This document shows, one piece after another, positions 5,266 to 64,000 of a stretch of 64,000 bases of DNA (position 1 is the first letter of the stretch; each line of letters opens with the position of its first letter). The notes beneath the pieces are model-generated. The model was given only the letters and a program-made list of their open reading frames with translations, ran no database searches and had not been told where the DNA came from. Source of the DNA: Malacoraja senta (Eukaryota); the NCBI GenBank assembly GCA_038087875.1, contig CM075994.1, forward strand, positions 496,001-560,000. The letters run 5' to 3'. Made by a program: the position numbers and the translations under genes.

Positions 5266-5925
5266 GTTAATGCTGGACTTTAGGAGGAGCCAAACACCCC
5301 TGTCCCCTGCCTCCATCAATGGTGTGGATGTGCAGTTTCCGAGGGAGTACAAATACCTTGGAGTTCACCTGGACAGTAAACTGGACTGGTCCAGGAACGC
5401 TGAGGCCCTGTACAAGAAGGGGCAGAGCCAGCTGTAGTTTTTGAGAAGGCTCCGCTCCTTCATCGTCTGCAGTAAGATGCTGCAGATGTTCTACCAATCG
5501 GTTGTGGCCAGTGCCATCTTCTTCGCTGCTGTGTGCTGGGGCAGCAGGGCGAAGGCCACGGACGCCAATAGGATCAACAAACTCATCAGGAAGGCTGGCT
5601 CCGTACTGAAAAGTATTCAAGGGAGGTTGGTCTTGGAGGGGAGGATGCTCCTCAAACTGCGGAGCATCCTGAACAATGCAGCTCACCCCCTCCATGACAC
5701 ACTGGTCAACCTGAGGAGCACCTTCACCACCAGACTGGTTCCACCAAGATGCAGCACAGAACGCCACAGGAGATCCTTCTTCCCCCTGGCTATCAAACTG
5801 TACAACTCCTCCCCTTTCTGTCCTGGGGTAGACTGACTCTCCTTTTATTTCTCTGTTTTTACGTCTGTTGGCAGATCAATTCCCCTTCTGGGATAAATAA
5901 ATTTGTATCGTATTGTAATGTAATA
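5266..5925 (+). mobile_element. Rex1/Babar-like LINE 3' fragment
   Basis: YKYLGVHLD, FYQSVVASAIFF, HPLH, RSFFPLAIKLYN. Confidence 0.75.
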
Positions 5926-6328
5926 GACTAAACTAAACTTTCATCGGGCACTGCAGACAACAAGGATCTTGTCACCAGCCACATCGGCTGCAACTAATTG
6001 ATCAAACCATTTCTGCTTGGGGGTTGCATCACAGTTCACTGGAGTGTGTACTGACCAGAGGCCCTTTCTCAGAATTGGAAAGAGGTTCTGATCATTCTAG
6101 TTGCCACATCCTCCTCTGCGAATGGGGAAGTGTTCCTGTCACTAGATCCATTACACCAAAGTTTCTCAAACAAAATATGCCATGCTGTTCCTTCAATTTG
6201 CGTTTGGCCTCGCTCTGACAATGGATTTCTCAAATTTCATGTAACCCCAGCATTCCCTCTCTCTCTATCCCTCCCCCAGCCAAGTCGCACTAGCTTCCTG
6301 TTGTCACCAAGCAAACACCAAACAATGG

Positions 6329-6528
6329 NNNNNNNNNNNNNNNNNNNNNNNNNNNNNNNNNNNNNNNNNNNNNNNNNNNNNNNNNNNNNNNNNNNNNNNN
6401 NNNNNNNNNNNNNNNNNNNNNNNNNNNNNNNNNNNNNNNNNNNNNNNNNNNNNNNNNNNNNNNNNNNNNNNNNNNNNNNNNNNNNNNNNNNNNNNNNNNN
6501 NNNNNNNNNNNNNNNNNNNNNNNNNNNN
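6329..6528. other. Assembly gap (200 N)
   Basis: Run of exactly 200 N. Confidence 1.
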
Positions 6529-9500: not shown

Positions 9501-10352
9501 CGGTGGACACAAACGGTTCCACTGGTACAAAGATCCCCCCCACTATGAGCCCCTTCTCTGGAGCTTAGGCCACTTCATCCTGAGACTTTAATATAATCAC
9601 ACACTTTCCCCCTGCAACCTCGGCAGAAGCAACCACATCCTTCTTGAAAAGATCATGCAGACCCTTTGTTATTGCATCCGTGATCCACCGGTACCCGGTT
9701 TGGACCGAGATCCCATGTTCGGCCCAATCCAAGTCAACATAAGGCTCATCCTCGATTGATCTCGAAGCCGCAGCTGTGTAACTCCGACTCCGAGACCGAG
9801 CATCCGCCATCTTGACATTGGTACAAAACAGGCACCAGGGACACAAGCAGCCTCAGCTCAAAAAGCGATCTCAGAGACAGTCACAGTCCGAAAAAGCAAC
9901 GGAAGCAATTATCTCCAGCTGAGTAAGGAAAATCCCCACGATTAAATCCACAGCCGCGAGCAGCTCTTGGGAGGCTTTTCACAGCCTTTCCGAGCCTCCG
10001 GAAACTACCGGAAGCGAAAAGTACCTTCTCTTCATTAAACCCAGGCAGCCTGCTCTGGGCAACATGGTATGGGAGCAGAGATCCGGTGTTAGAAACGACC
10101 AAAAACATCGCACACTTTTCTACGCCATGTCTCCAGGCACTCTTGGCAATCTGCCAGCCATAGCCGCTCCCATGGTGCCCCAGAAGAACGCAGGAATACC
10201 TCACTAAATGGAGAAATCCTTTAACAATAGAAGGTTTCTGCAGTCCGACATCAACTTTGATATCCCACTGCCTCTGTCCCTCTTCCTTTGACAAAAAACC
10301 TTGAAAGGTTGCTACGAAACTTCTCAGCTGTCGGATCAGAGAGAGTCACCAC
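6529..10352 (-). mobile_element. Degenerate Tx1-clade non-LTR retrotransposon, 5' part: 5'UTR, ORF1 (ATG 9810) and ORF2 APE endonuclease running into the gap
   Basis: ORF1 begins MADARSRSRSY and contains a CCHC knuckle CHACKEF*HFRRDC (9240-9199). ORF2 fragments show FLQETH, a GDFN-type motif, SDH and WHFNNRLL. Multiple stops and frameshifts. Confidence 0.85.
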
Positions 10353-11315
10353 CTCTCTCTCTTTTTTTCCATTCTAAGGACTTTATTCAGCAATTGCATA
10401 ATACAGCACACCAACATACGTAAACATTCAATGGTTACAATACATCAAACAGTCATTATAATACAATGGTGCAATCAGTATTATCGAACCCCTGTGGCGA
10501 CCAGCGTTCACAGAAGGCCTCCAGAGTCCCCGTGGACACCGCGTGTTCCCTCTCCAGGGACGTAGGCCTGGAAGACCTCTCTCTCCCTCTCTTTCTCTCT
10601 CTTTTTCCATTCCAAGGACTTTATTCAGCAATTGCATATTACAACTTACCAAACGTACATAAACGTTCACTGTTTACAATACATCAAGCAGTCATTATAA
10701 TACAATGGTGCAATCTTTATTTACAATGCTCTTACAATTACGGTGCTGGCTTGAAGGGCCGAATGGCCTACTCCTGCACCTGTTGTCTATTGTCTAATGT
10801 CTAATGCTCTTGAACCCCCGCGGCAACCTGCGTACACGGAAGGCCTCCAGAGTCCCCGTGGACACCGCGTGTTCCCTCTCCAGGGACACGCGAGCATGGA
10901 CACAGGCCCGGAAGAGGGGCAGGCAGCCGACTCTGTTGTGACCATCGACAGCCCGCTGCCTGGACCCGCGAACGGCCATCTTGGCCAGGCCCAGGAGCAA
11001 ACCAACAGAGAGATCCCTCCCCCCCGATCGGCCCTCCCCACTCCCCGCCTTGTGCCCAAACACCAGGATCGTGGGACTAAAATGCAACCAGAACCTGAGG
11101 AGCAACCTCTTCAGATATTGGTACAGGGGCAGCAACCTCACACACTCCATATACACGTGGAACACGGTCTCTACCTCGCCGCAGAAAATACAGGCGGCCG
11201 GTGAGCCCGTGAACCGACTCAAACGTTTATTAAACGCCACGGCTCTGTGCAACAATCTCCACCCCAACACTCCCCACTCTTTGTTCTTACTGTCCTCTGA
11301 GCAATTTGATCCTTG
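10353..11315 (-). mobile_element. Two stacked Tx1 3' ends (duplicate of 572-1545)
   Basis: ORF 10794-11444 contains WRLLHRAVAFNKRL..CIFCGEVETVFHVYMEC. Confidence 0.8.
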
Positions 11316-13339
11316 TTTTTTTGGGAAGTAGGTCAGTCCTTCTGTTCTGCTTCTTGTTTTGCAGTTCCTCATTTGTTTCTTGCCTTCTGAACTATTTCTC
11401 ACTGTCTCACACGCTCGCAGACACACACGCGCATACACACACACGGTTTACACTTTTGCCCTTTGTTTATATCGTCTAACTAGCAATTTCATCCATGAGT
11501 CAGTGGATATATTTAAGGTAGAGATAGGCAGATTCTTGATTTGTACGGGTGTCAGGGTTATGGGGAAATAGGATCAGGAGGGAGAAATAGATCAGCCATG
11601 ATTGAGTGGCGGAATGAACTTGATGGCCGAATGGCCTCGTTCTACTCCTATCACATGAGCTTATGATCCCGTTTTTTGGGGAAGTAGGGTTGATGGGTCA
11701 GTACTTACCAGTTCTGTTTCGTTGTGCTGTTCCTGATTTTCATTTAGTTTTTTGCAGACCAACTATTCTTAAATAAGCCACTTAAGCTATTTCCTCAACT
11801 AATTGTGCAGTGTTCTGTCACATGCTCCTCTTGATTCAGTGACGTGCACAGTATTTATGGATTGTCAATGCCTTCTTTGTTCTCTATCTCGTAAACTGTG
11901 TTCTGGCCTTATGTTGCCAGTTCAGTTCAGTTACAAATACAGCATGGAGACAGGCCATTTGGCCCACTGAGACCAACCAAGGGTGAGTGGGCAGATGCAC
12001 GGCAGATGCATGGCAGATGAGGTGTAATGTGGATGAATGTGAGGTTATCTACATTGGTGGCAAGAACAGGAAGGCAGATTATTATCTGAATGGTGTCAGA
12101 TTAGGAAAAGGGGAGGTGCAACGAGACCTGGGTGTGCTTGTACATCAGTCACTGAAAGTAAGCAGGTACACAAAAATGCTGGAGAAACTCAGCGGGTGCA
12201 GCAGCATCTATGGAGCGAAGGAAATAGGCAACGTTTCGGGCTGAAACCCTTCTTCAGACTGATGTATGCATGCAGGTGGGGTGGGAGATTGCAACCTTCA
12301 CCCTGTTTCGACAAATGCAATCAACCTGGTGTGCACAATCAAATAAGATCAAATAGAACAAGTTTTCCTACCACTTTAGGCTGTGTACGCCGTCCGCAAG
12401 AAGAAGCATGCAGATGTAGCAGGCAGTGAAGTAAGCCAATGGCATGTGGGCCTTCATTGCGAGAGAATTTGAGTTTAGGAGCAAGGAAGTCCTACTGCAG
12501 ATGAGGCAGCATCTACGGAGCGAAGGAAATAGCAACGTTTCGGGTCGAAACCCTTCTTCAGACTGATGTGAGGGTGGGTGGGGGGGGGGGGGGTGGGGAG
12601 GTTCGGGAAGAAGAAAGGAAGAAGTGGAGCCAGTGGCCTGAGGGAGAGCCGAGAAGGGGGGGAGAAAGTAGGGACTACCTGAAATTAGAGTAGTCAATGT
12701 TCATACCGCTGGGTTGCAAACTGTCCAAGCGAAATTTGAGGTGCTGCTCCTCCAATTTATGGTGGTCCTCCCTCTGGCCATGGAGGAGGCCCAGGATGTT
12801 TCCCATGTTGGGGGAGTCCAGAACTAGTGGTCACAGTTTAAGAATATGGGGCAGGTCATTTAGTACTGAGAGGAGGTAAATCTTTTTCACCCAGAGGATT
12901 GTGAATCTGTGGAATTCTCTGCCACAGAAGGCTGTGAAGGCCAATTCACTGGATGTTTTCAAGAGAGAGTTGGATTTAGCACTTAGGGCTAAAGGAATCA
13001 AGGATATGGGGAGAAAGCAGAAACTGATTTTAGATGATTAACCATGATCATATTGAATGGCGGTGCTGGCTTGAAAGGCCAAATGACTTATTCCTGCACC
13101 TATTTTTCTATGTTTCTATCCATCTATCACCCATTCACACACTAGTTCTATGTTATTCTACCCTACACACCAGGGGCAATTTACAGAGGGCCAATTAACC
13201 TACAAACCCGCAGATCTTCTGGATGAGGAGGAAACTGGAGCACCCCGGAGGAAATCAACGCGGTCTCAGGTGGGACGTGCTAACTCCACACAAACAGCAC
13301 CCAGGGTCAGGATTGAACCCGGGTCTCTGGCGCTGTAAG

Positions 13340-15237
13340 ATACATAGATACATAGAAAATAGGTGCAGGAGTAGGCCATTCGGCCCTTCGAGCCTGCACC
13401 GCCATTCAATACGATCATGGCTGATCATCCAACTCAGTATCCCGTACCTGCCTTCTCTCCATACCCCCTGATCCCTTTAGCCACAAGGGCCACATCTAAT
13501 TCCCTCTTAAATATAGCCAATGAACTGGCCTCAACTACCCTCTGTGGCTGAGAGTTCCCAGAGATTCACCACTCTCTGTGTGAAAAAGTTTTTCCTCATC
13601 TCGGTCTTAAAGGATTTCCCCCTTATCCTTAAGCTGTGACCCCTTGTCCTGGACTTCCCCAACATCGGGAACAATCTTCCTGCATCTAGCCTGTCCAACC
13701 CCATAAGAATTTTGTACGTTTCTATAAGATCCCCTCTCAATCTCCTAAATTCTAGCGAGTATAAGCCAAGTCTATCCAGTCTTTCTTCATATGAAAGTCC
13801 TGACATCCCAGGAATCAGTCTGGTGAACCTTCTCTGCACTCCCTCTATGGCTATAATGTCCTTCCTCAGATTTGGAGACCAAAACTGTACGCAATACTCC
13901 AGGTGTGGTCTCACCAAGACCCTGTACAACTGCAGTAGAACCTCGCTGCTCCTATACTCAAATCCTCTTGCTATGAAGGCCAACATACCATTCGCTTTCT
14001 TCACTGCCTGCTGCACCTGCATGCCTACTTTCAATGACTGGTGTACCATGACACCCAGGTCTCGCTGCATCTCCCCATTTCCTAATCGGCCACCATTTAG
14101 ATAATAGTCTGCCTTCCCGTTTTTGCTACCAAAGTGGATACCTCACATTATCCACATTATACTGCATCTGCCAAACATTTGCCACTCACCCAGCCTATCC
14201 AAGTCACCTTGCAGTCTCCTAGCATCCTCCTCACAGCTAACACTGCCCCCCAGCTTAGTGTCATCCGCAAACTTGGAGATGTTGCTTTCAATTCCCTCGT
14301 CCAGATCATTAATATAAATTGTAAATAGCTGGGGTCCCAGCACTGAGCCTTGCGGTACCCCACTAGTCACTGCCTGCCATTGTGAAAAGGACCCGTTTAC
14401 TCCTACTCTTTGCTTCCTGTTTGCCAGCCAGTTCTCTATCCACATCAATACTGATCCCCCAATACCGTGTGATTTAAGTTTGTATCCTAATCTCTATGTG
14501 GTACCTTGTCGAAAGCCTTCTGAAAGTCCAGATACAACACATCCACTGGTTCTCCCCTATCCACTCTACTAGTTACATCCTCGAAAAATTCTATAAGATT
14601 CGTCAGACACGATTTACCTTTCGTAAATCCATGCTGACTTTGTCCAATGATTTCACCACTTTCCAAATGTGCTGCTATCCCATCTTTAATAACTGACTCT
14701 AGCAGTTTCCCCACTACCGATGTTAGACTAACTGGTCTGTAATTCCCCATTTTCTCTCTCCCTCCTTCTTAAAAAGTGGGGTTACGTTTGCTACCCTCCA
14801 ATCCTCAGGAACTACTCCAGAATCTAAAGAGTTTTGAAAAATTATCACTAATGCATCCACTATTTCTGGAGCTACTTCCTTAAGTACTCTGGGATGCAGC
14901 CTGTCTGGCCCTGGTGATTTATCGGCCTTTAATCCATTCAATTTACCCAACACCACTTCCCGACTAACCTGGATTTCACTCAGTTCCTCCATCTCCTTTG
15001 ACCCGCGGCCCCCTGCTATTTCCGGCAGATTATTTATGTCTTCCTTAGTGAAGACGGAACCAAAGTAGTTATTCAATTGGTCTGCCATATCCTTGTTCCC
15101 CATGATCAATTCACCTGTTTCTGACTGCAAGGACCTACATTTGATTTAACTAATCTCTTTCTCTTCACATATCTATAAAAACTTTTGCAGTCAGTTTTTA
15201 TGTTCCCTGCCAGTTTCCTTTCATAATCTATTTTCCC
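13340..15237 (-). mobile_element. Young 5'-truncated CR1 LINE (RT domain + 3'UTR) inserted in a SINE; absent from duplicate copy A
   Basis: RT motifs [23 protein letters not shown] and FADD; (CTATGTAT)n tail; TAAG duplicated at 13336-13339 and 15238-15241; empty site at ~3917. Confidence 0.92.
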
Positions 15238-15612
15238 TAAGGTAGCAGCTCTACCTGTCACAGCAAGAGACGCATAGCAAGGAAACCCGTGATGATAGAC
15301 ACAAAATGGCTGAAGTAACTCAGCGGGACAGGAATGTGTGATGTTTCGTTTGAGACTCCTCTTCACACTGAGAGTCAGGGGAGAGGGAGACACAGGGATA
15401 AGGAAGGGTAAGGTGTGAAAAGGAGACATCAAAGTAGGTGGATCAAGGAAAATGTTCAAGAGATCATTGTTAGCTGGGAGAAGGTGACAACAAAGCAGAT
15501 AAAATGTAATCTGGGGGACAGTCAGACTGGTCGGAGAACTGGGAAGGGGGAGGGATGGAGGGGGAGGGAAAGCAAGGGTTACTTGATGTTAGCGAAGTTC
15601 ATATTCATAATG

Positions 15613-15851
15613 TTGTATTAAAGAAGGAACTGCAGATGCTGGAAAATCGAAGGTACACAAAAATGCTGGAGAAACTCAGCGGGTGCAGCAGCATCTATGG
15701 AGCGAAGGAAATAGGTAACGTTTCGGGCCGAAACCCTTCTTCAGAACCCTTCTTGAGTCTGAAGAAGGGTTTCGGCCCGAAACGTTACCTATTTCCTTCG
15801 CTCCATAGATGCTGCTGCACCCGCTGAGTTTCTCCAGCATTTTTGTGTACC
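15613..15851. mobile_element. Penelope-derived inverted-repeat insertion carrying hammerhead motifs; 15-bp TSD
   Basis: Two ~90-bp inverted arms; TSD TTCATATTCATAATG at 15598-15612 and 15852-15866; empty site at ~4280. Confidence 0.85.
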
Positions 15852-16842
15852 TTCATATTCATAATGGTGGGGTGTAAGCTGCCAAGCAAAATATGAGTGA
15901 AAAACCTCTGGTGCAGTTCAGTTTAGTATATTGTCACATGTATCGAGGTACAGTGAAAAGCTTTATCGGTCTTGCTGACCAAGGTGCCCCAACTGAGCAC
16001 TTTACTTTCTCAGCATCTTCCTGGCAGATTTAATGCATTCATTCTGTTTATTCCAGCCCGACCATCTATATTAATACCCTTTCATTTTAACCATAATTCT
16101 ACCCTGTGCATTGTGCATGGTTCTACCTCTTCTTTACAAACTATCTTTACAAACAATCATGCTTCGTTCTTCATCTTATATCATTTTATTAGGCATTCCA
16201 TTTAAACAACTTTTAAAACATGGCCCCTGTACAGGAACGATATTCAAACTAATACACATCAGAAACGCTTCAAAATAAGTTCATATATTTTAAGACATTC
16301 CACTGTTTCTTTAAGCTGTCTATTTGAACATTCTTTAATCGGATTTTTATCAGATTCCAATGTTATATGAATGCTTTATTGTAACATGTGACAAGTCACA
16401 GTGAAATTCTTTGCTTGCATACCCAAGGTATGCGAATAGTCGCCACATTAAGAGCGCTGACAAAGTATCTGCGCCAGGTTCACCTTTGTTCTCCCCCCCG
16501 TCCCTCCTCCCTCATGGCAGTCCCCCCCACGCCGGGTCCACTATGTACAGATTTGTACAAACAATCTTTGTACAAAAGTTACATCCCTTATCTTTTACCT
16601 TGCACTGTGGGTAGCTTGATACATTCCAAGATGGCGCCCAACCCAGGCGACTTTGGCATGCTGGCCACAGAAGCAGCATTCTATAATCACATATTATATG
16701 CACTAAAACTTATTCCATTATCATGTATCCATACTCTGTAATGGCTCGATTGTAATCATGTATTGTCTTTCTGCTGACTGGATACCACACAACAAAGGGT
16801 GTTTACTCTATCATACTTAAGGTGACAGTAATAATGGTTAAT

Positions 16843-17502
16843 GTTAATGCTGGACTTCAGGAGGAGCCGAACACCCCTGTCCCCTGCCTCCATCAATGGT
16901 GTGGATGTGCAGTTTCCGAGGGAGTACAAATACCTTGGATTTCACCTGGACAGTAAACTGGACTGGTCCAGGAACGCTGAGGCCCTGTACAAGAAGGGGC
17001 AGAGCCAGCTGTAGTTTTTGAGAAGGCTCCGCTCCTTCAGCGTCTGCAGTAAGATGCTGCAGATGTTCTACCAATCGGTTGTGGCCAGTGCCATCCTTCT
17101 TCGCTGCCGTGTGCTGGGGCAGCAGGCGAAGGCCACGGACGCCAATAGGATCAACAAACTCATCAGGAAGGCTGGCTCCGTACTGAAAAGTATTCAAGGG
17201 AGGTTGGTCTTGGAGGGGAGGATGCTCCTCAAACTGCGGAGCATCCTGAACAATGCAGCTCACCCCCTCCATGACACACTGGTCAACCTGAGGAGCACCT
17301 TCAGCAACAGACTGGTTCCACCAAGATGCAGCATACAACGCCACAGGAGATCCTTCTTCCCCCTGGCTATCAAACTGTACAACTCCTCCCCCTTCTGTCC
17401 TGGGGTAGACTGACTCCCCTTTTATTTCTCTGTTTTTACGTCTGTTGGCAGATCAATTCCCCTTCTGGAATAAATAAATTTGTATCGTATTGTAACGTAA
17501 TA
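16843..17502 (+). mobile_element. Rex1/Babar-like LINE 3' fragment (duplicate of 5266-5925)
   Basis: Same motifs as 5266-5925. Confidence 0.75.
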
Positions 17503-18035
17503 GACTAAACTAAACTTTCATCGGGGCACTGCAGACACAAGGATCTTGTCACCAGCCACATCGGCTGCAGCTAATTGATCAAACCACTTCTGCTTTGGGT
17601 TGCATCACAGTTCACTGGAGAGTGTGTACTGACCAGAGGCCCTTTCTCAGAATTGGAAAGAGGTTCTGATCATTCTAGTTGCCACATCCTCCTCTGCGAA
17701 GGGGAAGTGTTCCTGTCACTAGATCCATTACACCAACGTTTCTCAAACTAAATATGCCATGCTGTTCCTTCAATTTGCGTTTGGCCTCGCTCTGACAATG
17801 GATTTCTCAAATTTCCTGTAACCCCAGCATTCCCTCTCTCTCTATCCCTCCCCCAGCCAAGTCGCACTAGCTTCCTGTTGTCACCGAGCAAACACCAAAC
17901 AATGGCCTGTTTCCTTTATCATTGTGACTTTTTTTGCACGTCTTTCATCCATTTGTTCACTATCTCTACATCATTGTCTATATCTCACATTTCCCCTTCC
18001 CCTGAGTCTGTCTGAAGAAGGACTCGACCCGAAAC

Positions 18036-24732: not shown

Positions 24733-24812
24733 CTTGTTCAAGTCTTGCCGTGAAACTCTGTTAAACGCAACAAATCCTTCCGTGGCGTCCGATTTTCTCC
24801 TTCGATAATAAT
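24733..24812 (-). CDS. Ig-superfamily receptor gene, exon 4: juxtamembrane cytoplasmic (DYYRRRKSDATEGFVAFNRVSRQDLNK)
   Basis: Acceptor ttgttttatgtcag| and donor AAG|GTAAGT; 80 nt, phase 1 in and phase 0 out; open frame in non-repetitive sequence. Confidence 0.8.
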
Positions 24813-28609: not shown

Positions 28610-31575
28610 CTGTAATAAAACAGATGGGTTATTGCAATGAACTAGACCGGAAGGGACCACTGCCTCAATGAAGCAGCCAATATCACCAAAGACCCACGCC
28701 ACCCTGGCCACGCTGCCATCCCGCAGCGTGAGAACTGTGACCATCAGCTTCAAGAACGGCGACATGGTGGCTCAGCGGTAGAGTTGTTGCCTTAGAGTGC
28801 TTGCAGCGCCGTGCACACGGCTTGAATCACGACTTCGAGTGCTGCCTGTACGGAGTTTGTACGCTCTCCTCGTGACCCGCGTGGGTTTTCTCCGAGATCT
28901 TTGGTTTCCTCCCACACTCCAAAGACGTACAGGTACGTAGGTAAATTGGCTTGGTATAAATGTAAAAATGTGTAGGATAGTGTTAATATGCGGGGATTGC
29001 TGGTCAGAGTGGACCCGGTGTGCCGAAGGGCCTGTTTCCACGCTGTATCTCTAAACTAAACAGATTCTTCCCAACAGCCATCAGGCTCTTGAGCACTGCA
29101 CAACACTAACCACAGCATACGCGATCTCCCATGGACCAGGTCTTTGTTTCCACTACAGATTAAACTGTACAACCTCTCCCCCTTCTGTCATAGGGTAGAC
29201 TGAGACTGACTCCCTTCCCTCCCCATCCCAATCTTTGCACATCCTCAATCCTTTCCACTCGTCATTTTAATCTCATGTTTCATGTATTTTGTGTTTTTAT
29301 GACTGTTGGCAGATCAATCTCCCTACTATCGTTCAATCATATCATATCAGATGGTATTCGGATTTTGCACTATTATGGTTAGCTAGTTTAATTTAGTTTA
29401 TTACTGCCACATGTACGGAGGTACTTGTTTGTTACCTGCTATCCAGTCAAAGAAAAGAGTAAACTTGATTACAATCAATCCGTCCACAGTATACAGATAA
29501 AGGACAAAGGATACTACATTTAGTGCAAGATAGGGTTTAATTAAAGATAGACACAAAATACTGGGGTAACTCAGCGGATCAGGCAGCATCTCTGGGAGAA
29601 GGAATAGATGACATTTCCGGTCGTAACCCTTCTTCAGTCTCAACCGAAACATCACCTATTCCTTTTCTCCAAAGTAGCTGCCTGACCCACTGAGTTTCTC
29701 CAGCATTTTCACAAGTTCACAAGCTGTAGGGGTAGAATTAGGCCATTCGGCCCATCGAGTCTACTCCGCCATTTAGTCATGGCTGATCTCTGCCTCCTAA
29801 TCCCATTTTCCTGCCTTCTCCCCATAAACCTTGACAACCGTTCTAATCAAGAATTTGTCTATCTCTGGCTTAAAAATATCCAATGACTTGGCCTCCACAG
29901 CCCTCCGTGGCAATGAGTTCCACAGATTAACTACCCTCTGAGTAAAGAAGTGCATCCTCACCTCCTTTCTAACAGAGCGCCCTTTAATTTTGACGCTATG
30001 TGCTCTGGTCCTAGACTCTCCCACCAGTGGAAACATCCTTTCCACATCCACTCTTTCTATGCCTTTCATTATTCTGCAATTTTCAATGAGGTCCCCCCCC
30101 TCAACCTTCTAAACTCCACCAAGTAGAGAGCCAGTGCTGTCAAACGCTCATCATATGCAAACCCACTCATTCCTGGAATCATTCTTAGAGTCATAGAGTG
30201 ATACAGTGTGGAAACAGGCCCTTCAGCCCAACTTACCCACACCGGCCAACATGTCCCAGCTACACTAGTCTCACCTGCCTGCGCTTGGTCCATATCCCTC
30301 CAAACGTGTCCTATCCATATACCTGTCTTACTGTTTCTTAAACGTTGGGATAGTCCCAGCCTCAACTACCTCCTCTGGCAGTTTGTTCCATACACCCACC
30401 ACCCTCAGATTCCTATTAACTCTTTTCCCCTTCACCTTGAACCTATGTCCTCTGGTCCTCGATTCAGCTACTCTGTAAATCTACCCGATCCATTCCTCTC
30501 ATGATCTTAGACACCTCTATAAGATCACCCCTCATCCTCCTGCGCTCAAAGGAATAGAGACCCAGCCTACTCGACCTCTCCCGATAGCTCAGACCCTCTA
30601 GTCCTGGCAACATCCTCGTAAATCTTCTCTGAACCTTTTCAAGCTTGACAATATCTTTCCTATAACATGGTGCCAGATCTGAACACAACTCTTGCAAACA
30701 TTTTGTGTCTATCTTCGGTGTTGCTCTGCATCTGAAGTTCCTTCCTACACAATCCCATGAAAGATCATTCATTTGATTATATATTTATTTGTTGTCATTG
30801 TTTTTACAGGGCTGTTGGGCCATAGCAAGTCAGAATTTCACGTTCCCAGCAGATGCTGATTTAAAACGAAGATAAGACACAAAATGCTGGAATATAGGGC
30901 CTGTCCCACTTGAGCGTCATTTGCGCGTCATTTACTAAGCAAATCTCCCTGGTACCTGCACGGTTGTCTGATGCGGTTCAGTTAACGGTGTTAAATGAAA
31001 TTCGGCATAGAAACCCCCAACGCGGTGAAACATGAACATCTTCAAAGATACAATGCTCGCGGTTCAATATCGGGCTGGTCATAGAACCTACACCGGGGGT
31101 AGAGGGGAGGGAGGACGCCGGGGAGAGGGAGGAAGACACGACGGGGTAAAAGGGGGTGAGACGCCGGGAGGAGGGGGGGGGGAGAGGGGGAGGGAGGTGG
31201 GAGGAGAGGGGAGAGAAGGGGATAGGGGAAGGTACGCCAGGGGTAGCATGGGTGGGGGGGAGAGGGGAGGCCAGGGATAATTTAGTTTAGTTCAGATACA
31301 GCACGGAAAGGGGCCCTTCAGCCCACCGATTCCGCCTCGACTACTTGCACTATCCCACACACACCAGGGACAATTCCCAATTATACCGAAGCCAATTAAC
31401 CTACAAACCTTGTACGTCTTTGAAGTGTGGGAGGAAACCGGAGCTCCTGGAGAAAACCCACGCAGGTCATGGGGAGAACGTACAAACTCCGGACAGACAG
31501 CGCCCTTAGTCAGGATCGAACCCGGGTCATGCTTTAATTGCCCCCTCTGTGTGTGAACGCTCCGCCGGTTCCTAC

Positions 31576-31756
31576 CTGTCCCAGTGTGGTTATTGTAGAC
31601 CGTTAATGTCATGTTGTCTTTCACGCTGTTGTTTCCGCCGCTGTAAACAGATATCTCGTACACTCCGCTGTCATTGCGCCGTAAATCCCACAGTAACAGG
31701 GACCCATTCTCGGGGTAGAGGTGGACTCGCCCCGTGTGGGAAGGACCGGTCACCCA
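31576..31756 (-). pseudogene. Duplicated 3' half of the V exon (copy 1) with intact splice donor
   Basis: WVTGPSHTGRVHLYPENGSLLLWDLRRNDSGVYEISVYSGGNNSVKDNMTLTVYNNHTGT followed by G|GTAGGA; aligns without gaps to 39596-39776. Confidence 0.9.
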
Positions 31757-34249
31757 TGGATCAGGCTCTTGAGCACTGCACAACACTAACCACAGCATAC
31801 GCGATCTCCCATGGACCAGGTCTTTGTTTCCACTACAGATTAAACTGTACAACCTCTCCCCCTTCTGTCATAGGGTAGACTGAGACTGACTCCCTTCCCT
31901 CCCCATCCCAATCTTTGCACATCCTCAATCCTTTCCACTCGTCATTTTAATCTCATGTTTCATGTATTTTGTGTTTTTATGACTGTTGGCAGATCAATCT
32001 CCCTCCCAGTTCAATCATATCGTATCAGATGGTATTCGGTTTTTGCACTATTATGGTTAGCTAGTTTAATTTAGTTTATTACTGCCACATGTACGGAGGT
32101 ACTTGTTTGTTACCTGCTATCCAGTCAAAGAAAAGAGTAAACTTGATTACAATCAATCCGTCCACAGTATACAGATAAAGGACAAAGGATACTACATTTA
32201 GTGCAAGATAGGGTTTAATTAAAGATAGACACTAAATACTGGGGTAACTCAGCGGATCAGGCAGCATCTCTGGGAGAAGGAATAGATGACATTTCCGGTC
32301 GTAACCCTTCTTCAGTCTCAACCGAAACATCACCTATTCCTTTTCTCCAAAGTAGCTGCCTGACCCACTGAGTTTCTCCAGCATTTTCACAAGTTCACAA
32401 GCTGTAGGGGTAGAATTAGGCCATTCGGCCCATCGAGTCTACTCCGCCATTTAGTCATGGCTGATCTCTGCCTCCTAATCCCATTTTCCTGCCTTCTCCC
32501 CATAAACCTTGACAACCGTTCTAATCAAGAATTTGTCTATCTCTGGCTTAAAAATATCCAATGACTTGGCCTCCACAGCCCTCCGTGGCAATGAGTTCCA
32601 CAGATTAACTACCCTCTGAGTAAAGAAGTGCATCCTCACCTCCTTTCTAACAGAGCGCCCTTTAATTTGACGCTATGTGCTCTGGTCCTAGACTCTCCCA
32701 CCAGTGGAAACATCCTTTCCACATCCACTCTTTCTATGCCTTTCATTATTCTGCAATTTCAATGAGGTCCCCCCCTCAACCTTCTAAACTCCACCAAGTA
32801 GAGAGCCAGTGCTGTCAAACGCTCATCATATGCAAACCCACTCATTCCTGGAATCATTCTTAGAGTCATAGAGTGATACAGTGTGGAAACAGGCCCTTCA
32901 GCCCAACTTACCCACACCGGCCAACATGTCCCAGCTACACTAGTCTCACCTGCCTGCGCTTGGTCCATATCCCTCCAAACGTGTCCTATCCATATACCTG
33001 TCTTACTGTTTCTTAAACGTTGGGATAGTCCCAGCCTCAACTACCTCCTCTGGCAGTTTGTTCCATACACCCACCACCCTCAGATTCCTATTAACTCTTT
33101 TCCCCTTCACCTTGAACCTATGTCCTCTGGTCCTCGATTCAGCTACTCTGTAAATCTACCCGATCCATTCCTCTCATGATCTTAGACACCTCTATAAGAT
33201 CACCCCTCATCCTCCTGCGCTCAAAGGAATAGAGACCCAGCCTACTCGACCTCTCCCGATAGCTCAGACCCTCTAGTCCTGGCAACATCCTCGTAAATCT
33301 TCTCTGAACCTTTTCAAGCTTGACAATATCTTTCCTATAACATGGTGCCAGATCTGAACACAACTCTTGCAAACATTTTGTGTCTATCTTCGGTGTTGCT
33401 CTGCATCTGAAGTTCCTTCCTACACAATCCCATGAAAGATCATTCATTTGATTATATATTTATTTGTTGTCATTGTTTTTACAGGGCTGTTGGGCCATAG
33501 CAAGTCAGAATTTCACGTTCCCAGCAGATGCTGATTTAAAACGAAGATAAGACACAAAATGCTGGAATATAGGGCCTGTCCCACTTGAGCGTCATTTGCG
33601 CGTCATTTACTAAGCAAATCTCCCTGGTACCTGCACGGTTGTCTGATGCGGTTCAGTTAACGGTGTTAAATGAAATTCGGCATAGAAAACCCCCAACGCG
33701 GTGAAACATGAACATCTTCAAAGATACAATGCTCGCGGTTCAATATCGGGCTGGTCATAGAACCTACACCGGGGGTAGAGGGGAGGGAGGACGCCGGGGA
33801 GAGGGAGGAAGACACGACGGGGTAAAAGGGGGTGAGACGCCGGGAGGAGGGGGGGGGAGATGGGGAGGGAGGTGGGAGGAGAGGGGAGAGAAGGGGATAG
33901 GGGAAGGTACGCCAGGGGTAGCATGGGTGGGGGGGAGAGGGGAGGCCAGGGATAATTTAGTTTAGTTCAGATACAGCACGGAAAGGGGCCCTTCAGCCCA
34001 CCGATTCCGCCTCGACTACTCGCACTATCCCACACACACCAGGGACAATTCCCAATTATACCGAAGCCAATTAACCTACAAACCTTGTACGTCTTTGAAG
34101 TGTGGGAGGAAACCGGAGCTCCCGGAGAAACCCACGCAGGTCACGGGGAGAACGTACAAACTCCGGACAGACAGCACCCTTAGTCAGGATCGAACCCGGG
34201 TCATGCTTTAATTGCCCCCTCTGTGTGTGAACGCTCCGCCGGTTCCTAC

Positions 34250-34430
34250 CTGTCCCAGTGTGGTTATTGTAGACCGTTAATGTCACGTTGTCTTTCACGC
34301 TGTTGTTTCCGCCGCTGTAAACAGATATCTCGTACACTCCGCTGTCATTGCGCCGTAAATCCCACAGTAACAGGGACCCATTCTCGGGGTAGAGGTGGAC
34401 TCGCCCCGTGTGGGAAGGACCGGTCACCCA
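34250..34430 (-). pseudogene. Duplicated 3' half of the V exon (copy 2)
   Basis: Same 181-nt fragment (DNVTLTVY variant) with the donor retained. Confidence 0.9.
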
Positions 34431-36930
34431 TGGATCAGGCTCTTGAGCACTGCACAACACTAACCACAGCATACGCGATCTCCCATGGACCAGGTCTTTG
34501 TTTCCACTACAGATTAAACTGTACAACCTCTCCCCCTTCTGTCATAGGGTAGACTGAGACTGACTCCCTTCCCTCCCCATCCCAATCTTTGCACATCCTC
34601 AATCCTTTCCACTCGTCATTTTAATCTCATGTTTCATGTATTTTGTGTTTTTATGACTGTTGGCAGATCAATCTCCCTACTATCGTTCAATCATATCGTA
34701 TCAGATGGTATTCGGTTTTTGCACTATTATGGTTAGCTAGTTTAATTTAGTTTATTACTGCCACATGTACGGAGGTACTTGTTTGTTACCTGCTATCCAG
34801 TCAAAGAAAAGAGTAAACTTGATTACAATCAATCCGTCCACAGTATACAGATAAAGGACAAAGGATACTACATTTAGTGCAAGATAGGGTTTAATTAAAG
34901 ATAGACACAAAATACTGGGGTAACTCAGCGGATCAGGCAGCATCTCTGGGAGAAGGAATAGATGACATTTCCGGTCGTAACCCTTCTTCAGTCTCAACCG
35001 AAACATCACCTATTCCTTTTCTCCAAAGTAGCTGCCTGACCCACTGAGTTTCTCCAGCATTTTCACAAGTTCACAAGCTGTAGGGGTAGAATTAGGCCAT
35101 TCGGCCCATCGAGTCTACTCCGCCATTTAGTCATGGCTGATCTCTGCCTCCTAATCCCATTTTCCTGCCTTCTCCCCATAAACCTTGACAACCGTTCTAA
35201 TCAAGAATTTGTCTATCTCTGGCTTAAAAATATCCAATGACTTGGCCTCCACAGCCCTCCGTGGCAATGAGTTCCACAGATTAACTACCCTCTGAGTAAA
35301 GAAGTGCATCCTCACCTCCTTTCTAACAGAGCGCCCTTTAATTTTGACGCTATGTGCTCTGGTCCTAGACTCTCCCACCAGTGGAAACATCCTTTCCACA
35401 TCCACTCTTTCTATGCCTTTCATTATTCTGCAATTTTCAATGAGGTCCCCCCCCTCAACCTTCTAAACTCCACCAAGTAGAGAGCCAGTGCTGTCAAACG
35501 CTCATCATATGCAAACCCACTCATTCCTGGAATCATTCTTAGAGTCATAGAGTGATACAGTGTGGAAACAGGCCCTTCAGCCCAACTTACCCACACCGGC
35601 CAACATGTCCCAGCTACACTAGTCTCACCTGCCTGCGCTTGGTCCATATCCCTCCAAACGTGTCCTATCCATATACCTGTCTTACTGTTTCTTAAACGTT
35701 GGGATAGTCCCAGCCTCAACTACCTCCTCTGGCAGTTTGTTCCATACACCCACCACCCTCAGATTCCTATTAACTCTTTTCCCCTTCACCTTGAACCTAT
35801 GTCCTCTGGTCCTCGATTCAGCTACTCTGTAAATCTACCCGATCCATTCCTCTCATGATCTTAGACACCTCTATAAGATCACCCCTCATCCTCCTGCGCT
35901 CAAAGGAATAGAGACCCAGCCTACTCGACCTCTCCCGATAGCTCAGACCCTCTAGTCCTGGCAACATCCTCGTAAATCTTCTCTGAACCTTTTCAAGCTT
36001 GACAATATCTTTCCTATAACATGGTGCCAGATCTGAACACAACTCTTGCAAACATTTTGTGTCTATCTTCGGTGTTGCTCTGCATCTGAAGTTCCTTCCT
36101 ACACAATCCCATGAAAGATCATTCATTTGATTATATATTTATTTGTTGTCATTGTTTTTACAGGGCTGTTGGGCCATAGCAAGTCAGAATTTCACGTTCC
36201 CAGCAGATGCTGATTTAAAACGAAGATAAGACACAAAATGCTGGAATATAGGGCCTGTCTCACTTGAGCGTCATTTGCGCGTCATTTACTAAGCAAATCT
36301 CCCTGGTACCTGCACGGTTGTCTGATGCGGTTCAGTTAACGGTGTTAAATGAAATTCGGCATAGAAACCCCCAACGCGGTGAAACATGAACATCTTCAAA
36401 GATACAATGCTCGCGGTTCAATATCGGGCTGGTCATAGAACCTACACCGGGGGTAGAGGGGAGAGAGGACGCCGGGGAGAGGGAGGAAGACACGACGGGG
36501 TAAAAGGGGGTGAGACGCCGGGAGGAGGGGGGGGGGGAGAGGGGGAGGGAGGTGGGAGGAGAGGGGAGAGAAGGGGATAGGGGAAGGTACGCCAGGGGTA
36601 GCATGGGTGGGGGGGAGAGGGGAGGCCAGGGATAATTTAGTTTAGTTCAGATACAGCACGGAAAGGGGCCCTTCAGCCCACCGATTCCGCCTCGACTACT
36701 CGCACTATCCCACACACACCAGGGACAATTCCCAATTATACCGAAGCCAATTAACCTACAAACCTTGTACGTCTTTGAAGTGTGGGAGGAAACCGGAGCT
36801 CCCGGAGAAAACCCACGCAGGTCACGGGGAGAACGTACAAACTCCGGACAGACAGCGCCCTTAGTCAGGATCGAACCCGGGTCATGCTTTAATTGCCCCC
36901 TCTGTGTGTGAACGCTCCGCCGGTTCCTAC

Positions 36931-37111
36931 CTGTCCCAGTGTGGTTATTGTAGACCGTTAATGTCACGTTGTCTTTCACGCTGTTGTTTCCGCCGCTGTA
37001 AACAGATATCTCGTACACTCCGCTGTCATTGCGCCGTAAATCCCACAGTAACAGGGACCCATTCTCGGGGTAGAGGTGGACTCGCCCCGTGTGGGAAGGA
37101 CCGGTCACCCA
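36931..37111 (-). pseudogene. Duplicated 3' half of the V exon (copy 3)
   Basis: Same 181-nt fragment with the donor retained. Confidence 0.9.
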
Positions 37112-39595
37112 TGGATCAGGCTCTTGAGCACTGCACAACACTAACCACAGCATACGCGATCTCCCATGGACCAGGTCTTTGTTTCCACTACAGATTAAAC
37201 TGTACAACCTCTCCCCCTTCTGTCATAGGGTAGACTGAGACTGACTCCCTTCCCTCCCCATCCCAATCTTTGCACATCCTCAATCCTTTCCACTCGTCAT
37301 TTTAATCTCATGTTTCATGTATTTTGTGTTTTTATGACTGTTGGCAGATCAATCTCCCTACTATCGTTCAATCATATCGTATCAGATGGTATTCGGTTTT
37401 TGCACTATTATGGTTAGCTAGTTTAATTTAGTTTATTACTGCCACATGTACGGAGGTACTTGTTTGTTACCTGCTATCCAGTCAAAGAAAAGAGTAAACT
37501 TGATTACAATCAATCCATCCACAGTATACAGATAAAGGACAAAGGATACTACATTTAGTGCAAGATAGGGTTTAATTAAAGATAGACACAAAATACTGGG
37601 GTAACTCAGCGGATCAGGCAGCATCTCTGGGAGAAGGAATAGATGACATTTCCGGTCGTAACCCTTCTTCAGTCTCAACCGAAACATCACCTATTCCTTT
37701 TCTCCAAAGTAGCTGCCTGACCCACTGAGTTTCTCCAGCATTTTCACAAGTTCACAAGCTGTAGGGGTAGAATTAGGCCATTCGGCCCATCGAGTCTACT
37801 CCGCCATTTAGTCATGGCTGATCTCTGCCTCCTAATCCCATTTTCCTGCCTTCTCCCCATAAACCTTGACAACCGTTCTAATCAAGAATTTGTCTATCTC
37901 TGGCTTAAAAATATCCAATGACTTGGCCTCCACAGCCCTCCGTGGCAATGAGTTCCACAGATTAACTACCCTCTGAGTAAAGAAGTGCATCCTCACCCCC
38001 TTTCTAACAGAGCGCCCTTTAATTTTGACGCTATGTGCTCTGGTCCTAGACTCTCCCACCAGTGGAAACATCCTTTCCACATCCACTCTTTCTATGCCTT
38101 TCATTATTCTGCAATTTTCAATGAGGTCCCCCCCCTCAACCTTCTAAACTCCACCAAGTAGAGAGCCAGTGCTGTCAAACGCTCATCATATGCAAACCCA
38201 CTCATTCCTGGAATCATTCTTAGAGTCATAGAGTGATACAGTGTGGAAACAGGCCCTTCAGCCCAACTTACCCACACCGGCCAACATGTCCCAGCTACAC
38301 TAGTCTCACCTGCCTGCGCTTGGTCCATATCCCTCCAAACGTGTCCTATCCATATACCTGTCTTACTGTTTCTTAAACGTTGGGATAGTCCCAGCCTCAA
38401 CTACCTCCTCTGGCAGTTTGTTCCATACACCCACCACCCTCAGATTCCTATTAACTCTTTTCCCCTTCACCTTGAACCTATGTCCTCTGGTCCTCGATTC
38501 AGCTACTCTGTAAATCTACCCAATCCATTCCTCTCATGATCTTAGACACCTCTATAAGATCACCCCTCATCCTCCTGCGCTCAAAGGAATAGAGACCCAG
38601 CCTACTCGACCTCTCCCGATAGCTCAGACCCTCTAGTCCTGGCAACATCCTCGTAAATCTTCTCTGAACCTTTTCAAGCTTGACAATATCTTTCCTATAA
38701 CATGGTGCCAGATCTGAACACAACTCTTGCAAACATTTTGTGTCTATCTTCGGTGTTGCTCTGCATCTGAAGTTCCTTCCTACACAATCCCATGAAAGAT
38801 CATTCATTTGATTATATATTTATTTGTTGTCATTGTTTTTACAGGGCTGTTGGGCCATTGCAAGTCAGAATTTCACGTTCCCAGCAGATGCTGATTTAAA
38901 ACGAAGATAAGACACAAAATGCTGGAATATAGGGCCTGTCCCACTTGAGCGTCATTTGCGCGTCATTTACTAAGCAAATCTCCCTGGTACCTGCACGGTT
39001 GTCTGATGCGGTTCAGTTAACGGTGTTAAATGAAATTCGGCATAGAAACCCCCAACGCGGTGAAACATGAACATCTTCAAAGATACAATGCTCGCGGTTC
39101 AATATCGGGCTGGTCATAGAACCTACACCGGGGGTAGAGGGGAGGGAGGACGCCGGGGAGAGGGAGGAAGACACGACGGGGTAAAAGGGGATGAGACGCC
39201 GGGAGGGGGGGGGAGAGGGGGATGGAGGAGAGGGGAGAGAAGGGGATGGGGGAAGGCACGCCGGGGGTAGCATGGGGGGGGAGGGGAGGCCAGGGATAAT
39301 TTAGTTTAGTTCAGATAAAGCACGGAAAGGGGCCCTTCGGCCCACCGATTCCGCGTCGACCACTCGCACTATCCCACACACACCAGGGACAATTCCCAAT
39401 TATACCGAAGCCAATTAACCTACAAACCTTGTACGTCTTTGAAGTGTGGGAGGAAATTCTGAGCTCCCGGAGAAAACCCACGCAGGTCACGGGGAGAACG
39501 TACAAACTCCGGACAGACAGCGCCCTTAGTCAGGATCGAACCCGGGTCATGCTTTAATTGCCCCCTCTGTGTTTGAACGCTCCGCCGGTTCCTAC

Positions 39596-39994
39596 CTGTC
39601 TTAGTGTGGTAATTGTAGACCGTTAATGTCACGTTGTCTTTCACGCTGTTGTTTCCGCCGCTGTAAATCAATATCTCGTACACTCCGCTGTCACTGCGCC
39701 GTAAATCCCGCAGTAACAGGGACCCATTTTCGGGGTAGAGTTGGACTCGCCCCGTGTGGGAAGGACTGGCCATCCAGCGAACTGAACAGTTACAACCGGG
39801 TCGGTCAGGGTGTAGAGGGCAGTCAGATCGGCTCAGTCTCACAAGCGGAGTTGTGGTGTTGTGCAAACGCCACACTAATGTTAGCTGGGAGCAGGGACCG
39901 AGTGTGGAGTAGCAGCTGGCGAGAAGGGCCGAGCGGCCGACGGTCCCGTTCACTTCTCTCTCACGGACGCTCACGGAGACTCTGCTTCCCGAGG
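39596..39994 (-). CDS. Ig-superfamily receptor gene, exon 2: V-set Ig domain (HEPACAM/CEACAM/CD2-like N-domain)
   Basis: Acceptor ctgttgtgtgttgcag|CC and donor ACAG|GTAGGA; 399 nt, phase 1-1, open frame. V-set motifs: VNGTVGRSALL, W in VWRL, RVQLYPENGSLLLRDLRRSDSGVY, VTLTVY. Six N-glycosylation sequons. Confidence 0.9.
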
Positions 39995-40299
39995 CTGCAA
40001 CACAACAGGTAAAGGATCAACGGGTCCCGGTTACAATCCCAGCCCCGGGACACGATCGTCCCCGTATGACCGTGAGGTCAGGCAGCATGTGAGGAGGGGG
40101 AGGGGGGGGGAGCTGCCGGCGACTCAACAAGGCGATACTGACCCAGGCTGCGGCGAAGGTGTGGGGTGGGAGTGGCAGGGAGGGGAGGGGGGAGAGGGAG
40201 GGTAGGGGAAGGGGAGTGGGCGGGATGGTGGGGGAAGAGTAAGTGGGTGAAGGGTGGGGGTGGGGAGAAAATAAACTCGGAGCGGAAGGAGGGTGATGC

Positions 40300-41230
40300 G
40301 AGTGGGAGGTGAGGGTGGGGGTGGGGGAGGTGAGGGAGTGGGAGTTGAGGGTGGGGGGAGTGGGAGTTGAGGGTGGGGGGGGTGGGAGGTGAGGGTGGGG
40401 GGAGTGGGAGGTGAGGGTGGGGGGAGTGGGAGGTGAGGGTGGGGGGAGTGGGAGGTGAGGGTGGGTGGAGTGGGAGGTGAGGGTGGGGGGAGTGGGATGT
40501 GAGGGTGGGGGGTGGGAGTTCAGATTGGGAGGTGAGGGTGGGGTGGGGGGTGGGAGGTGAGGGTGGGGGGAGTGGGAGGTGAGGATGGGGGGAGTGAGAT
40601 GTGAAGGTGGGGGTGGGAGTTGAGGGTGGGTGATGAGGGTGGGGTGGGGGTGGGAGGTGAGGGTGGGGGGTGGGAGGTGAGTGTGGGGGTAGGACGTGAA
40701 TGTGGGGGGGGGTGAGGGTGGGAGTAGTGGGAAGTAAGGGTGGGGGGTGAGGGTGGGGGGTGAGAGGGGGGGGTGGGGGGTGGGACGTGAGGGCGGGTGG
40801 AGTGGTGAGAGTGGGGGGAGTGGGACGTGAGGGTGGGGTGGGGGGTGGGAGGTGAGGATGGGGGGAGTGGGAGGTGAGGGTGGGGGGTGGGACGTGAGGG
40901 CGGGTGGAGTGGTGAGAGTGGGGGGAGTGGGAGGTGAGGGTGGGGTGGGGGGTGGGAGGTGAGGATGGGGGGAGTGGGAGGTGAGGGTGGGAGGTGGGGT
41001 GGGAGGTGGGAGGTGAGTGTGGGGGGGACGTGAATGTGGGGGGGGGGGTGAGGGTGGGAGTAGTGGGAGGTGAGGGTGGGAGTAGTGGGAGGTAAGGGTG
41101 GGGGTGTGGGAGTTGAGGGCGGGTGGAGTGGTGAGAGTGGGGGGGAGTGGGCGGTGGGGGTGGGGGCAATGGTGAGGGTGGGGGGGAGTGGGAGGTGAGG
41201 GTGGGGGTTGTTGGAGGTAAGGGTGGGGGG
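40300..41230 (+). repeat. G-rich minisatellite, ~22-bp unit GGGAGGTGAGGGTGGGGGGAGT with variants
   Basis: Directly visible tandem units, e.g. 40384-40470; extreme G skew on the + strand. Confidence 0.9.
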
Positions 41231-41618
41231 AGTGGAGTAGAAGGGAGTGGGTGGATGTGGAGAGGGTATGGGCGGGAATGTGGGGAGAGGGAGGGTGTGA
41301 GAGCGGAGAGTGGAGGGTGTTAGAAGAGGGCTGGGGGATGGGGAAGGAGGGAGAGGAGTGGGAAGGGTGGGGAAGATGAGGGTGAGAGTAGGAAAAGAGG
41401 GGTTTGGAGGGACTACCGGGTTGGGACGGTGTATATATGTTGGGGGCGGGGAATGCTAAGTGTGAATACTCGCTGCGACAACACACTCGGGGAATAGGCT
41501 TTAACTCAATATACCCGGCCCCCTACTAGAGCTTTACCGGCTGTGAAATGTTCCCCGGGGTCACGAAGACGCTCTTCGGATCACAGTGCTTTTGAAGAGC
41601 AGAACCGATACACAAAAG

Positions 41619-41658
41619 CAAAGATCCTATAGCAATAGCAATAGCTATATGATCTTTG
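41619..41658. mobile_element. 40-bp mini-MITE (TIR CAAAGATCCTATAGC, one mismatch), 8-bp TSD
   Basis: CACAAAAG duplicated at 41611-41618 and 41659-41666. Confidence 0.8.
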
Positions 41659-48854: not shown

Positions 48855-48948
48855 CCGAGAGACAAGCCCAAGTGGCAACGAGGATGAAAATGCTGAAGAA
48901 ATCATTTTCCCTGCGAGCCCTTCGCCGCGGTGTACGACGCTCGGACAT
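48855..48948 (-). CDS. Ig-superfamily receptor gene, exon 1 (start codon + signal peptide): MSERRTPRRRARRENDFFSIFILVATWACLS
   Basis: ATG at 48948. Basic N-region followed by a hydrophobic FFSIFILVATWACL core. Ends in a consensus donor G|GTAAGT in phase 1, matching the phase-1 acceptor of the V exon (junction codon GCC). Confidence 0.8.
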
Positions 48949-63960: not shown

Positions 63961-64000
63961 ACCCGTAGTCAGGATCGAACCCGGGTCTCTGGCGCTGCAA

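Follow-up and report, generated by a model that had tools for sequence, protein, structure and literature searches.

The window analysed here is a stretch of 64,000 nt of Malacoraja senta DNA (GenBank assembly GCA_038087875.1, contig CM075994.1, positions 496,001 to 560,000 of the forward strand). It holds a five-exon receptor gene on the minus strand, whose exon 2 encodes an immunoglobulin V-type (IgV) domain (hereafter the V exon) and whose second intron contains three copies of the 3' half of that exon. With a probability of roughly 0.6 we attribute these copies to an ordinary intragenic tandem duplication, present today in four copies, in which the half-exons, devoid of an acceptor, are silent passengers from a second, once intact V lineage. 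Today's gene is likely a recombinant of two V lineages. A first-pass annotation of this DNA had named an ordinary copy-number variant (CNV) as its neutral alternative, and it is this alternative that the evidence favours.

Array architecture and half-exons

As outlined in Table 1, positions 29080-39776 consist of four units of 2.66-2.68 kb, arranged head to tail in the same orientation and joined by a single junction type. In a self-BLAST of the window, 29080-37111 aligned to 31760-39776 with 98.9% identity across 8042 nt. The intronic tandem array which the first-pass annotation had placed downstream of the intact V exon is thereby confirmed, and its coordinates and counts hold. The repeat fragment at the unit start, and thus at the junction, is presumably the 3' end of a LINE-like element (long interspersed nuclear element), and matches to dispersed repeats elsewhere in the window cover 65% of unit U4. 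The array contains no N.

Pairwise comparison of U1-U3 revealed 7-11 substitutions, corresponding to a divergence of 0.19-0.24% in the first part of the unit and 0.33-1.0% in the last part. When the diverged block of U4 (see below) is left out, U1, U2, U3 and U4 carry 6, 4, 2 and 4 private substitutions, respectively, and five of the six in U1 are of CpG type. The private substitutions of each unit, CpG-biased in U1, speak for distinct, real genomic copies; several further differences between them are homopolymer indels. At the mutation rate of the epaulette shark, 7e-10 per generation (PMC10587355), a divergence of 0.24-0.3% would amount to ~2 million generations. Since this rate is borrowed and CpG-inflated, the dating serves solely for the statement that the array is not brand new. 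With its head-to-tail copies, single junction, private mutations and untouched host reading frame, the array has the make-up of an intragenic tandem CNV.

According to the first-pass annotation each unit ends in 181 nt from the 3' side of the V exon, the frame being open and the donor intact. This is what we find: in all three half-exons the frame is open and the donor G|GTAGGA is the same as at the intact exon (39596), while the natural acceptor is absent. The number of differences given there, 13 nucleotides and 10 residues relative to the intact exon, is correct for U2 and U3, whereas U1 differs by 14 nucleotides and 11 residues. U1 departs from U2 and U3 at 31612 only (1 of 181 nt; a CpG transition changing Val to Met). 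What had been taken for three variant half-exons is therefore a single variant in three copies, U2 being equal to U3 and U1 off by one CpG change. The piece starts at residue 73 of 132 and is without the N-terminal strands of the fold model, four to five in number, the Trp41 strand among them. Asn28 of the half-exon creates an N-D-S glycosylation sequon, where the intact exon reads S-D-S (36931-37111).

Divergence step in the last unit

A feature missed in the first-pass annotation is a sharp step in the divergence of U4. This unit carries 4 private substitutions in 2077 columns (0.19%), followed by 31 in 603 columns (5.1%), with the changepoint at 39190 (likelihood ratio 69.6, not attained in any of 2000 permutations). 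U1 shows no such divergence at its left edge, with 2 private substitutions across its first 2.2 kb. No mosaic tract was found in the diverged block: all 31 U4-private substitutions are fixed relative to U1-U3, and a transfer of any tract from the intact exon to a half-exon has consequently not taken place. The longest run free of differences, 113 nt, is intronic (p=0.05 under a uniform model) and is at most a hint of a reverse transfer, from the half-exon side to the intact side.

Within the diverged block the exon differs at 13 of 181 positions (~7%) as compared to 7 of 310 (2.3%) in the adjoining non-GA intron. With the GA tract excluded, differences were counted at 12 of 139 nonsynonymous sites as against 8 of 351 sites that are either synonymous or part of the non-GA intron (p=0.004). 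Such an excess would fit a divergence that took place while both exons were coding.

Half-exon letters in other public runs

The comparison with positions 36700-40300 of the window covered contigs from four of the 24 coded public runs listed. Such contigs show presence only, and none of the listed runs shares as much as half of the window's words. No RNA run is among those listed, which has no bearing on whether the gene is expressed. At least 11 of the 13 half-exon letters were found in contigs of these other runs, among the matches listed. Run X1 provided a 160-nt contig (depth 75.8) which is identical to half-exon 36916-37075 with 0 differences and spans 9 of the 13 diagnostic sites. Record 29 of run X3 (39657-39847) has the half-type letters of sites 39729, 39767 and 39770, and record 16 of run X17 (39730-40011) has those of 39767 and 39770; both records extend across the cut point and reach the 5' half. 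A second X1 contig (depth 86.6), located at ~39710-39810 from its from_end values, crosses the cut point as well, with ~31 nt adjoining the 160-nt contig. The organism behind the X1 contigs (organism A) could belong to a different species or could be a conspecific that has diverged. The summed depth of the X1 contigs would suggest several V copies, but it does not represent a copy number and was not drawn upon. The array junction at 37114/37115 was swamped by repeat contigs in this comparison.

Because half-type letters occur in contigs of other runs, the differences of the half-exons appear to be largely standing variation of skate V exons, and neither decay nor a designed set. Since this applies to at least 11 of the 13 letters, the half-exons likely originate from a second V lineage, either a paralogue or an old allele. 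Contigs with the half-type letter at 39767 also have the letter at 39781 that gives Asp. A parent exon with this Asp codon would imply a 3-nt microhomology between the junction and the repeat flank; alternatively, the junction could reflect a templated insertion from a look-alike (12 of 13 letters) ~50 nt away.

Proposed history and alternatives

From these data we infer the following order of events. A locus with two V lineages, about 2-5% apart and present as tandem paralogues or old alleles, would have been the starting point. In lineage 2, a non-homologous tandem duplication would have joined the middle of the V exon to the repeat fragment 2.5 kb down the intron, after which unequal crossing-over within near-identical DNA would have raised the copy number. 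Finally, a single exchange in or near the GA-rich tract (38860-39190) would have set a lineage-1 V exon before the array, the transmembrane (TM) exon and the tail of lineage 2. The mRNA of the present gene likely joins 39596 to 28609, whereby every half-exon is skipped.

Several observations weigh against this history. No parent gene of lineage 2 lies within the window; its sequence is known only as contigs of other runs and from two Amblyraja models. The half-type letters at 39741 and 39773 are absent among the matches listed; the residues they specify (His and Val) are present in the homologues Amblyraja P0002 and Leucoraja P0003. The cut-crossing X1 contig departs from the half-exon at 39750, 39767 and 39772 and is therefore not its exact parent, its joining to the 160-nt contig relies on overlap and depth only, and in organism A the 160-nt contig itself could belong to an intact exon or else to the same half-exon. 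Furthermore, the intact exon does not qualify as a clean orthologue of P0022 of Amblyraja, with which it shares 49 of 60 residues as compared to 52 of 60 with P0002. Finally, the nonsynonymous excess drops to p=0.052 with the GA tract included among the neutral sites and to p=0.30 with synonymous sites alone, and the exclusion of the GA tract was chosen after the data had been seen.

Divergence in place we consider unlikely. The half-exon would then derive from a single old duplication in the same gene, after which it and the intact exon would have diverged where they stand, while conversion or unequal crossing-over later evened out the remaining 2.08 kb and increased the number of units. This, too, would still be an ordinary silent CNV. 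In concerted evolution the terminal units of tandem arrays are expected to escape homogenisation, in line with a divergence confined to the end of U4; derived residues are found on both sides (L36, Y56 and K59 in the intact exon; N56, G59 and W23 in the half-exon), and the 160-nt X1 contig could represent the same half-exon in a close relative. However, the left edge of U1 is undiverged, so only one end of the array would have escaped, and half-type letters occur in contigs that run across the cut point. Moreover, if the array were shared, one would expect a near-identical contig of greater depth at 39003-39027, whereas the sole X1/X2 contig there among the matches listed (in X1 also covering 39042) differs from the array, although holes in contigs are weak evidence.

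An assembly effect appears improbable, be it that haplotypes were switched or paralogues misjoined at the GA-rich tract, or that the units were miscounted. The switch does lie within low-complexity G/GA sequence, homopolymer indels account for several of the unit differences, and 23 kb away the segment 1-6328 repeats 9782-17905 at a divergence of 1.9% and ends at a gap in the manner of an uncollapsed haplotype. Local haplotypes could therefore differ about as much as the non-GA intron (2.3%). On the other hand, private substitutions are present in all four units and are CpG-biased in U1, which one or two copies on two haplotypes cannot explain, the array is free of N, and long-read assemblers do not usually join sequences of 95% identity.

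The first-pass annotation had suggested that the half-exons could act as donors, in loose analogy to pseudo-V donor arrays. On this reading they would be retained as templates whose residues pass into the expressed exon by gene conversion or unequal crossover, in the germline or somatically; we regard such a function as very improbable. The geometry is as described: the half-exons have the orientation of the exon, are in frame, retain their donor and lie less than 8 kb away, and a crossover inside the 181 nt would indeed yield an in-frame chimera. The variants also derive from a lineage of coding quality, and the 113-nt difference-free intronic stretch is borderline (p=0.05). About 200 nt is the usual length for efficient recombination in yeast, and conversion below this minimal length is possible and does occur (PMC3924818); exon-limited conversion is described between Xenopus ceacam paralogues (PMC5112662). 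Against this, there is a single donor variant only, no mosaic at the 31 diagnostic sites and no enrichment of hotspots of the deaminase AID (2 of 13 sites at WRC/GYW, with 19 hotspots in the 181 nt), and the recipient is no antigen receptor. Perfect matches within the exon do not exceed 56 nt, as compared to 336-523 nt in the adjoining DNA, where a crossover would leave the exon unchanged and alter the copy number only.

The chicken immunoglobulin (Ig) pseudo-V arrays comprise many diverse upstream donors, 49 pseudogenes in the case of the light chain, which serve an Ig recipient by AID-dependent somatic gene conversion (PMC10917233). The present array resembles them in its truncated, V-like segments, which share the orientation of the expressed V exon close by. 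Unlike them, it offers one distinct variant instead of 49, all three segments are located downstream, in intron 2, the recipient is not a rearranging Ig or T-cell receptor (TCR) V, and neither AID targeting nor mosaics are indicated. The analogy thus fails in all four features that could be tested: recipient type, donor diversity, donor position and AID hotspots or mosaics. It is hard to credit that the array is an archive of a displaced V lineage, with three in-frame old 3' halves left beside the new ligand-binding exon of a hybrid gene and feeding residues back by conversion or crossover. If it were, a non-rearranging, inhibitory-type receptor of cartilaginous fish would possess a built-in source of new alleles, germline or, at the extreme, somatic. 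Half-exon tracts in alleles or transcripts, if found, would amount to templated diversification outside Ig, TCR and variable lymphocyte receptors (VLR) in cartilaginous fish.

Splicing of the half-exons as cassette exons, which would result in a longer stalk or a decay-targeted isoform, has little to commend it. Three in-frame, open AGs lie upstream of the half-exon (37122, 37140 and 37176) and the donors are intact, but these AGs have only 11, 9 and 9 pyrimidines in 20 and none is CAG (all AAG or TAG), whereas all four genuine acceptors of the gene are CAG with 13-17 pyrimidines in 20; the AG at 37120 and the CAG at 37130 would open a wrong frame that contains stops, and inclusion would add half a domain only (from residue 73 of 132), without the Trp41 strand. 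The cryptic acceptor proposed earlier, gtgctcaag|AGCCTG at 37122, is in frame, as stated there, and open, but as an AAG with 11 pyrimidines in 20 and an out-of-frame AG on either side it makes a poor candidate.

The host receptor gene

By tblastn and splice-site checks the host gene comprises five exons with a total of 849 nt, encoding 282 residues in an open frame without internal stop (Table 1).

Table 1. Positions of the array, its units and half-exons and of the exons of the host gene (numbering of the window; strand in brackets).
Feature	Position	Remarks
Unit U1	29080-31759	2680 nt
Unit U2	31760-34433	2674 nt
Unit U3	34434-37114	2681 nt
Unit U4	37115-39776	2662 nt; ends in the intact V exon (its 3' part, 181 nt)
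Duplication junction	37112-37117 (+); identical at 31757-31762 and 34431-34436	half-exon, TGG, then unit-start ATC inside the repeat fragment
Half-V-exon in U1	31756-31576 (-)	181 nt; donor at 31576; one extra CpG change
Half-V-exon in U2	34430-34250 (-)	181 nt; donor at 34250; identical to the U3 half-exon
Half-V-exon in U3	37111-36931 (-)	181 nt; donor at 36931
Switch interval, near-identical to diverged	38860-39190	best point 39190; GA/G-rich tract
Diverged block of U4	39191-39776	31 private substitutions in 603 columns vs U1-U3
Exon 1, leader peptide	48855-48948 (-)	tblastn with Rhinoraja homologue; GT donor; 27/30 identical with the leader of Amblyraja P0022
Exon 2, intact IgV exon	39596-39994 (-)	399 nt; phase 1-1; CAG acceptor; G|GTAGGA donor
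Exon 3, stalk and TM segment	28469-28609 (-)	tblastn, splice-site checks
Exon 4, cytoplasmic	24733-24812 (-)	tblastn, splice-site checks
Exon 5, cytoplasmic tail and stop codon	20037-20171 (-)	tyrosine motifs TTYCLL (like an immunoreceptor tyrosine-based inhibitory or switch motif, ITIM/ITSM) and IVYAVP

The V domain is predicted as a V-set sandwich (predicted local distance difference test, pLDDT, 88.6). Its F strand reads DSGVYEI and has no Cys, Arg82 and Asp101 are invariant in 23 of 23 aligned rows, a Cys58/Cys69 pair is conserved in the alignment, and an NGSLLL motif is present. Best matches in the PDB were CEACAM1/6/7 with the single sequence (E 4e-7) and JAML with the profile (E 2e-10), while the Atlas ranking gave an uncharacterised cluster first and CEACAM19 second. 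The nearest named relatives, all of them weak, are thus CEACAM N-domains, JAML, CD48 and CEACAM19-like clusters; the neighbours found by fold search are generic IgV domains with 15-20% identity (PD-L1, TIGIT, VCBP3). Taken from sequence features, the product would be a single-IgV CEACAM/HEPACAM-like receptor with a tyrosine tail and not an antigen receptor; an inhibitory role is suggested by the tail motif only.

The CEACAM IgV N-domain is described as having an Arg-Asp salt bridge and no B-F disulfide (PMC4079198). The host domain resembles CEACAM N-domains, CEACAM19, HEPACAM and JAML in its V-set fold, the missing F-strand Cys, Arg82 and Asp101 (which could form such a salt bridge), the NGSLLL motif and the arrangement of a single V domain, TM segment and tyrosine tail. 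It differs from CEACAM-type receptors in the conserved Cys58/Cys69 pair and in having generic IgV domains as structural neighbours.

An identity of the host exon as an Ig or TCR V segment was rejected on account of the lacking F-strand Cys, the direct splice to the TM exon and a recombination signal sequence (RSS)-like site at chance level. This site, the only one in the window (41582-41620 (+)), lies in intron 1, 1.6 kb from the V exon, and combines a perfect heptamer, a 23-nt spacer and a nonamer matching at 7 of 9 positions; 10 of 40 simulated windows contained an equally good one. In the same intron a G-rich 22-bp minisatellite of ~45 copies (40289-41235) begins 300 nt upstream of the V-exon acceptor and may be a recombination-prone tract.

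V-exon repetition in the receptor family

The best homologue matches were obtained for Amblyraja (85%), Rhinoraja (78%) and Leucoraja (77%); homologues go by the names 'uncharacterized' or '-like' only. In Amblyraja two models with consecutive protein accessions were found, P0022 comprising leader and V, and P0002 comprising V, TM and tail; P0022 continues past V into the same intron. The half-exon is identical to P0002 at 54 of 60 residues as compared to 52 of 60 for the intact exon. A one-to-one pairing of the intact and half exons with the two Amblyraja V exons was tried and rejected: 2 of 3 informative sites agree and other sites conflict.

Repeated V domains occur in homologues from Hypanus (3), Anas (6), Phalacrocorax (2), Ascaphus (2) and Oxyura (2), the three of Hypanus being near-identical and two of them partial in the model. 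V-exon duplication is habitual in this receptor family, with the breakpoint falling within the exon in the present case. The final tyrosine-motif segment is doubled in the Rhinoraja and Mobula homologues (P0004, P0006, P0021), so duplication recurs in the tail of the family too. Amblyraja P0022 and Leucoraja P0003 have in common an internal duplication of 11 residues in the V domain, which is absent from the exon of the window. Leucoraja P0003 furthermore has a different TM exon and no tyrosine tail, a hint of a second receptor type. In the literature searched, with few subscription journals and no supplements, no title or abstract dealt with the gene or the array.

Comparison with hybrid receptor genes

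In a plain intragenic CNV the duplicated piece matches its source, whereas the exon piece here is 7% apart from the exon it follows. This mismatch suggests an extra exchange between two V lineages; no further copy of the 5' half of the V exon was found within the window. Hybrid genes and CNV are described for the germline KIR cluster (PMC2816608) and conversion of the N exon among Xenopus ceacam genes (PMC5112662). Both would be better analogues than the chicken pseudo-V arrays: they likewise involve a sharp identity switch near non-B-prone sequence in a duplication-prone family, and in the favoured history the ligand-binding exon and the TM segment with the tyrosine tail would also come from different lineages. 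The present locus differs from them in that the parent paralogues are not seen in the window, the family is uncharacterised and the retained piece is an array of half-exons. If correct, the proposed history makes the locus a clear example of the turnover of a ligand-binding exon in a duplication-prone receptor family. It further points to an uncharacterised family of single-IgV receptors with a tyrosine tail in skates, rays, sharks, frog and birds, with recurrent amplification of the V exon.

Neighbouring repeats

The duplicate segments 1-6328 and 9782-17905 differ in 111 of 5945 columns, and the left copy stops at a gap of 200 N (6329-6528); they represent either an uncollapsed haplotype or a tandem segmental duplication. 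A 1.9-kb retroelement piece at 13341-15238, which we take to be CR1-like, is present only in the right-hand duplicate and is 97% like 62081-63961 in the opposite orientation, as would be expected of a young or polymorphic insertion. Between the duplicate segments, broken LINE-like open frames, presumably Tx1-like, extend over 6600-11450 (-).

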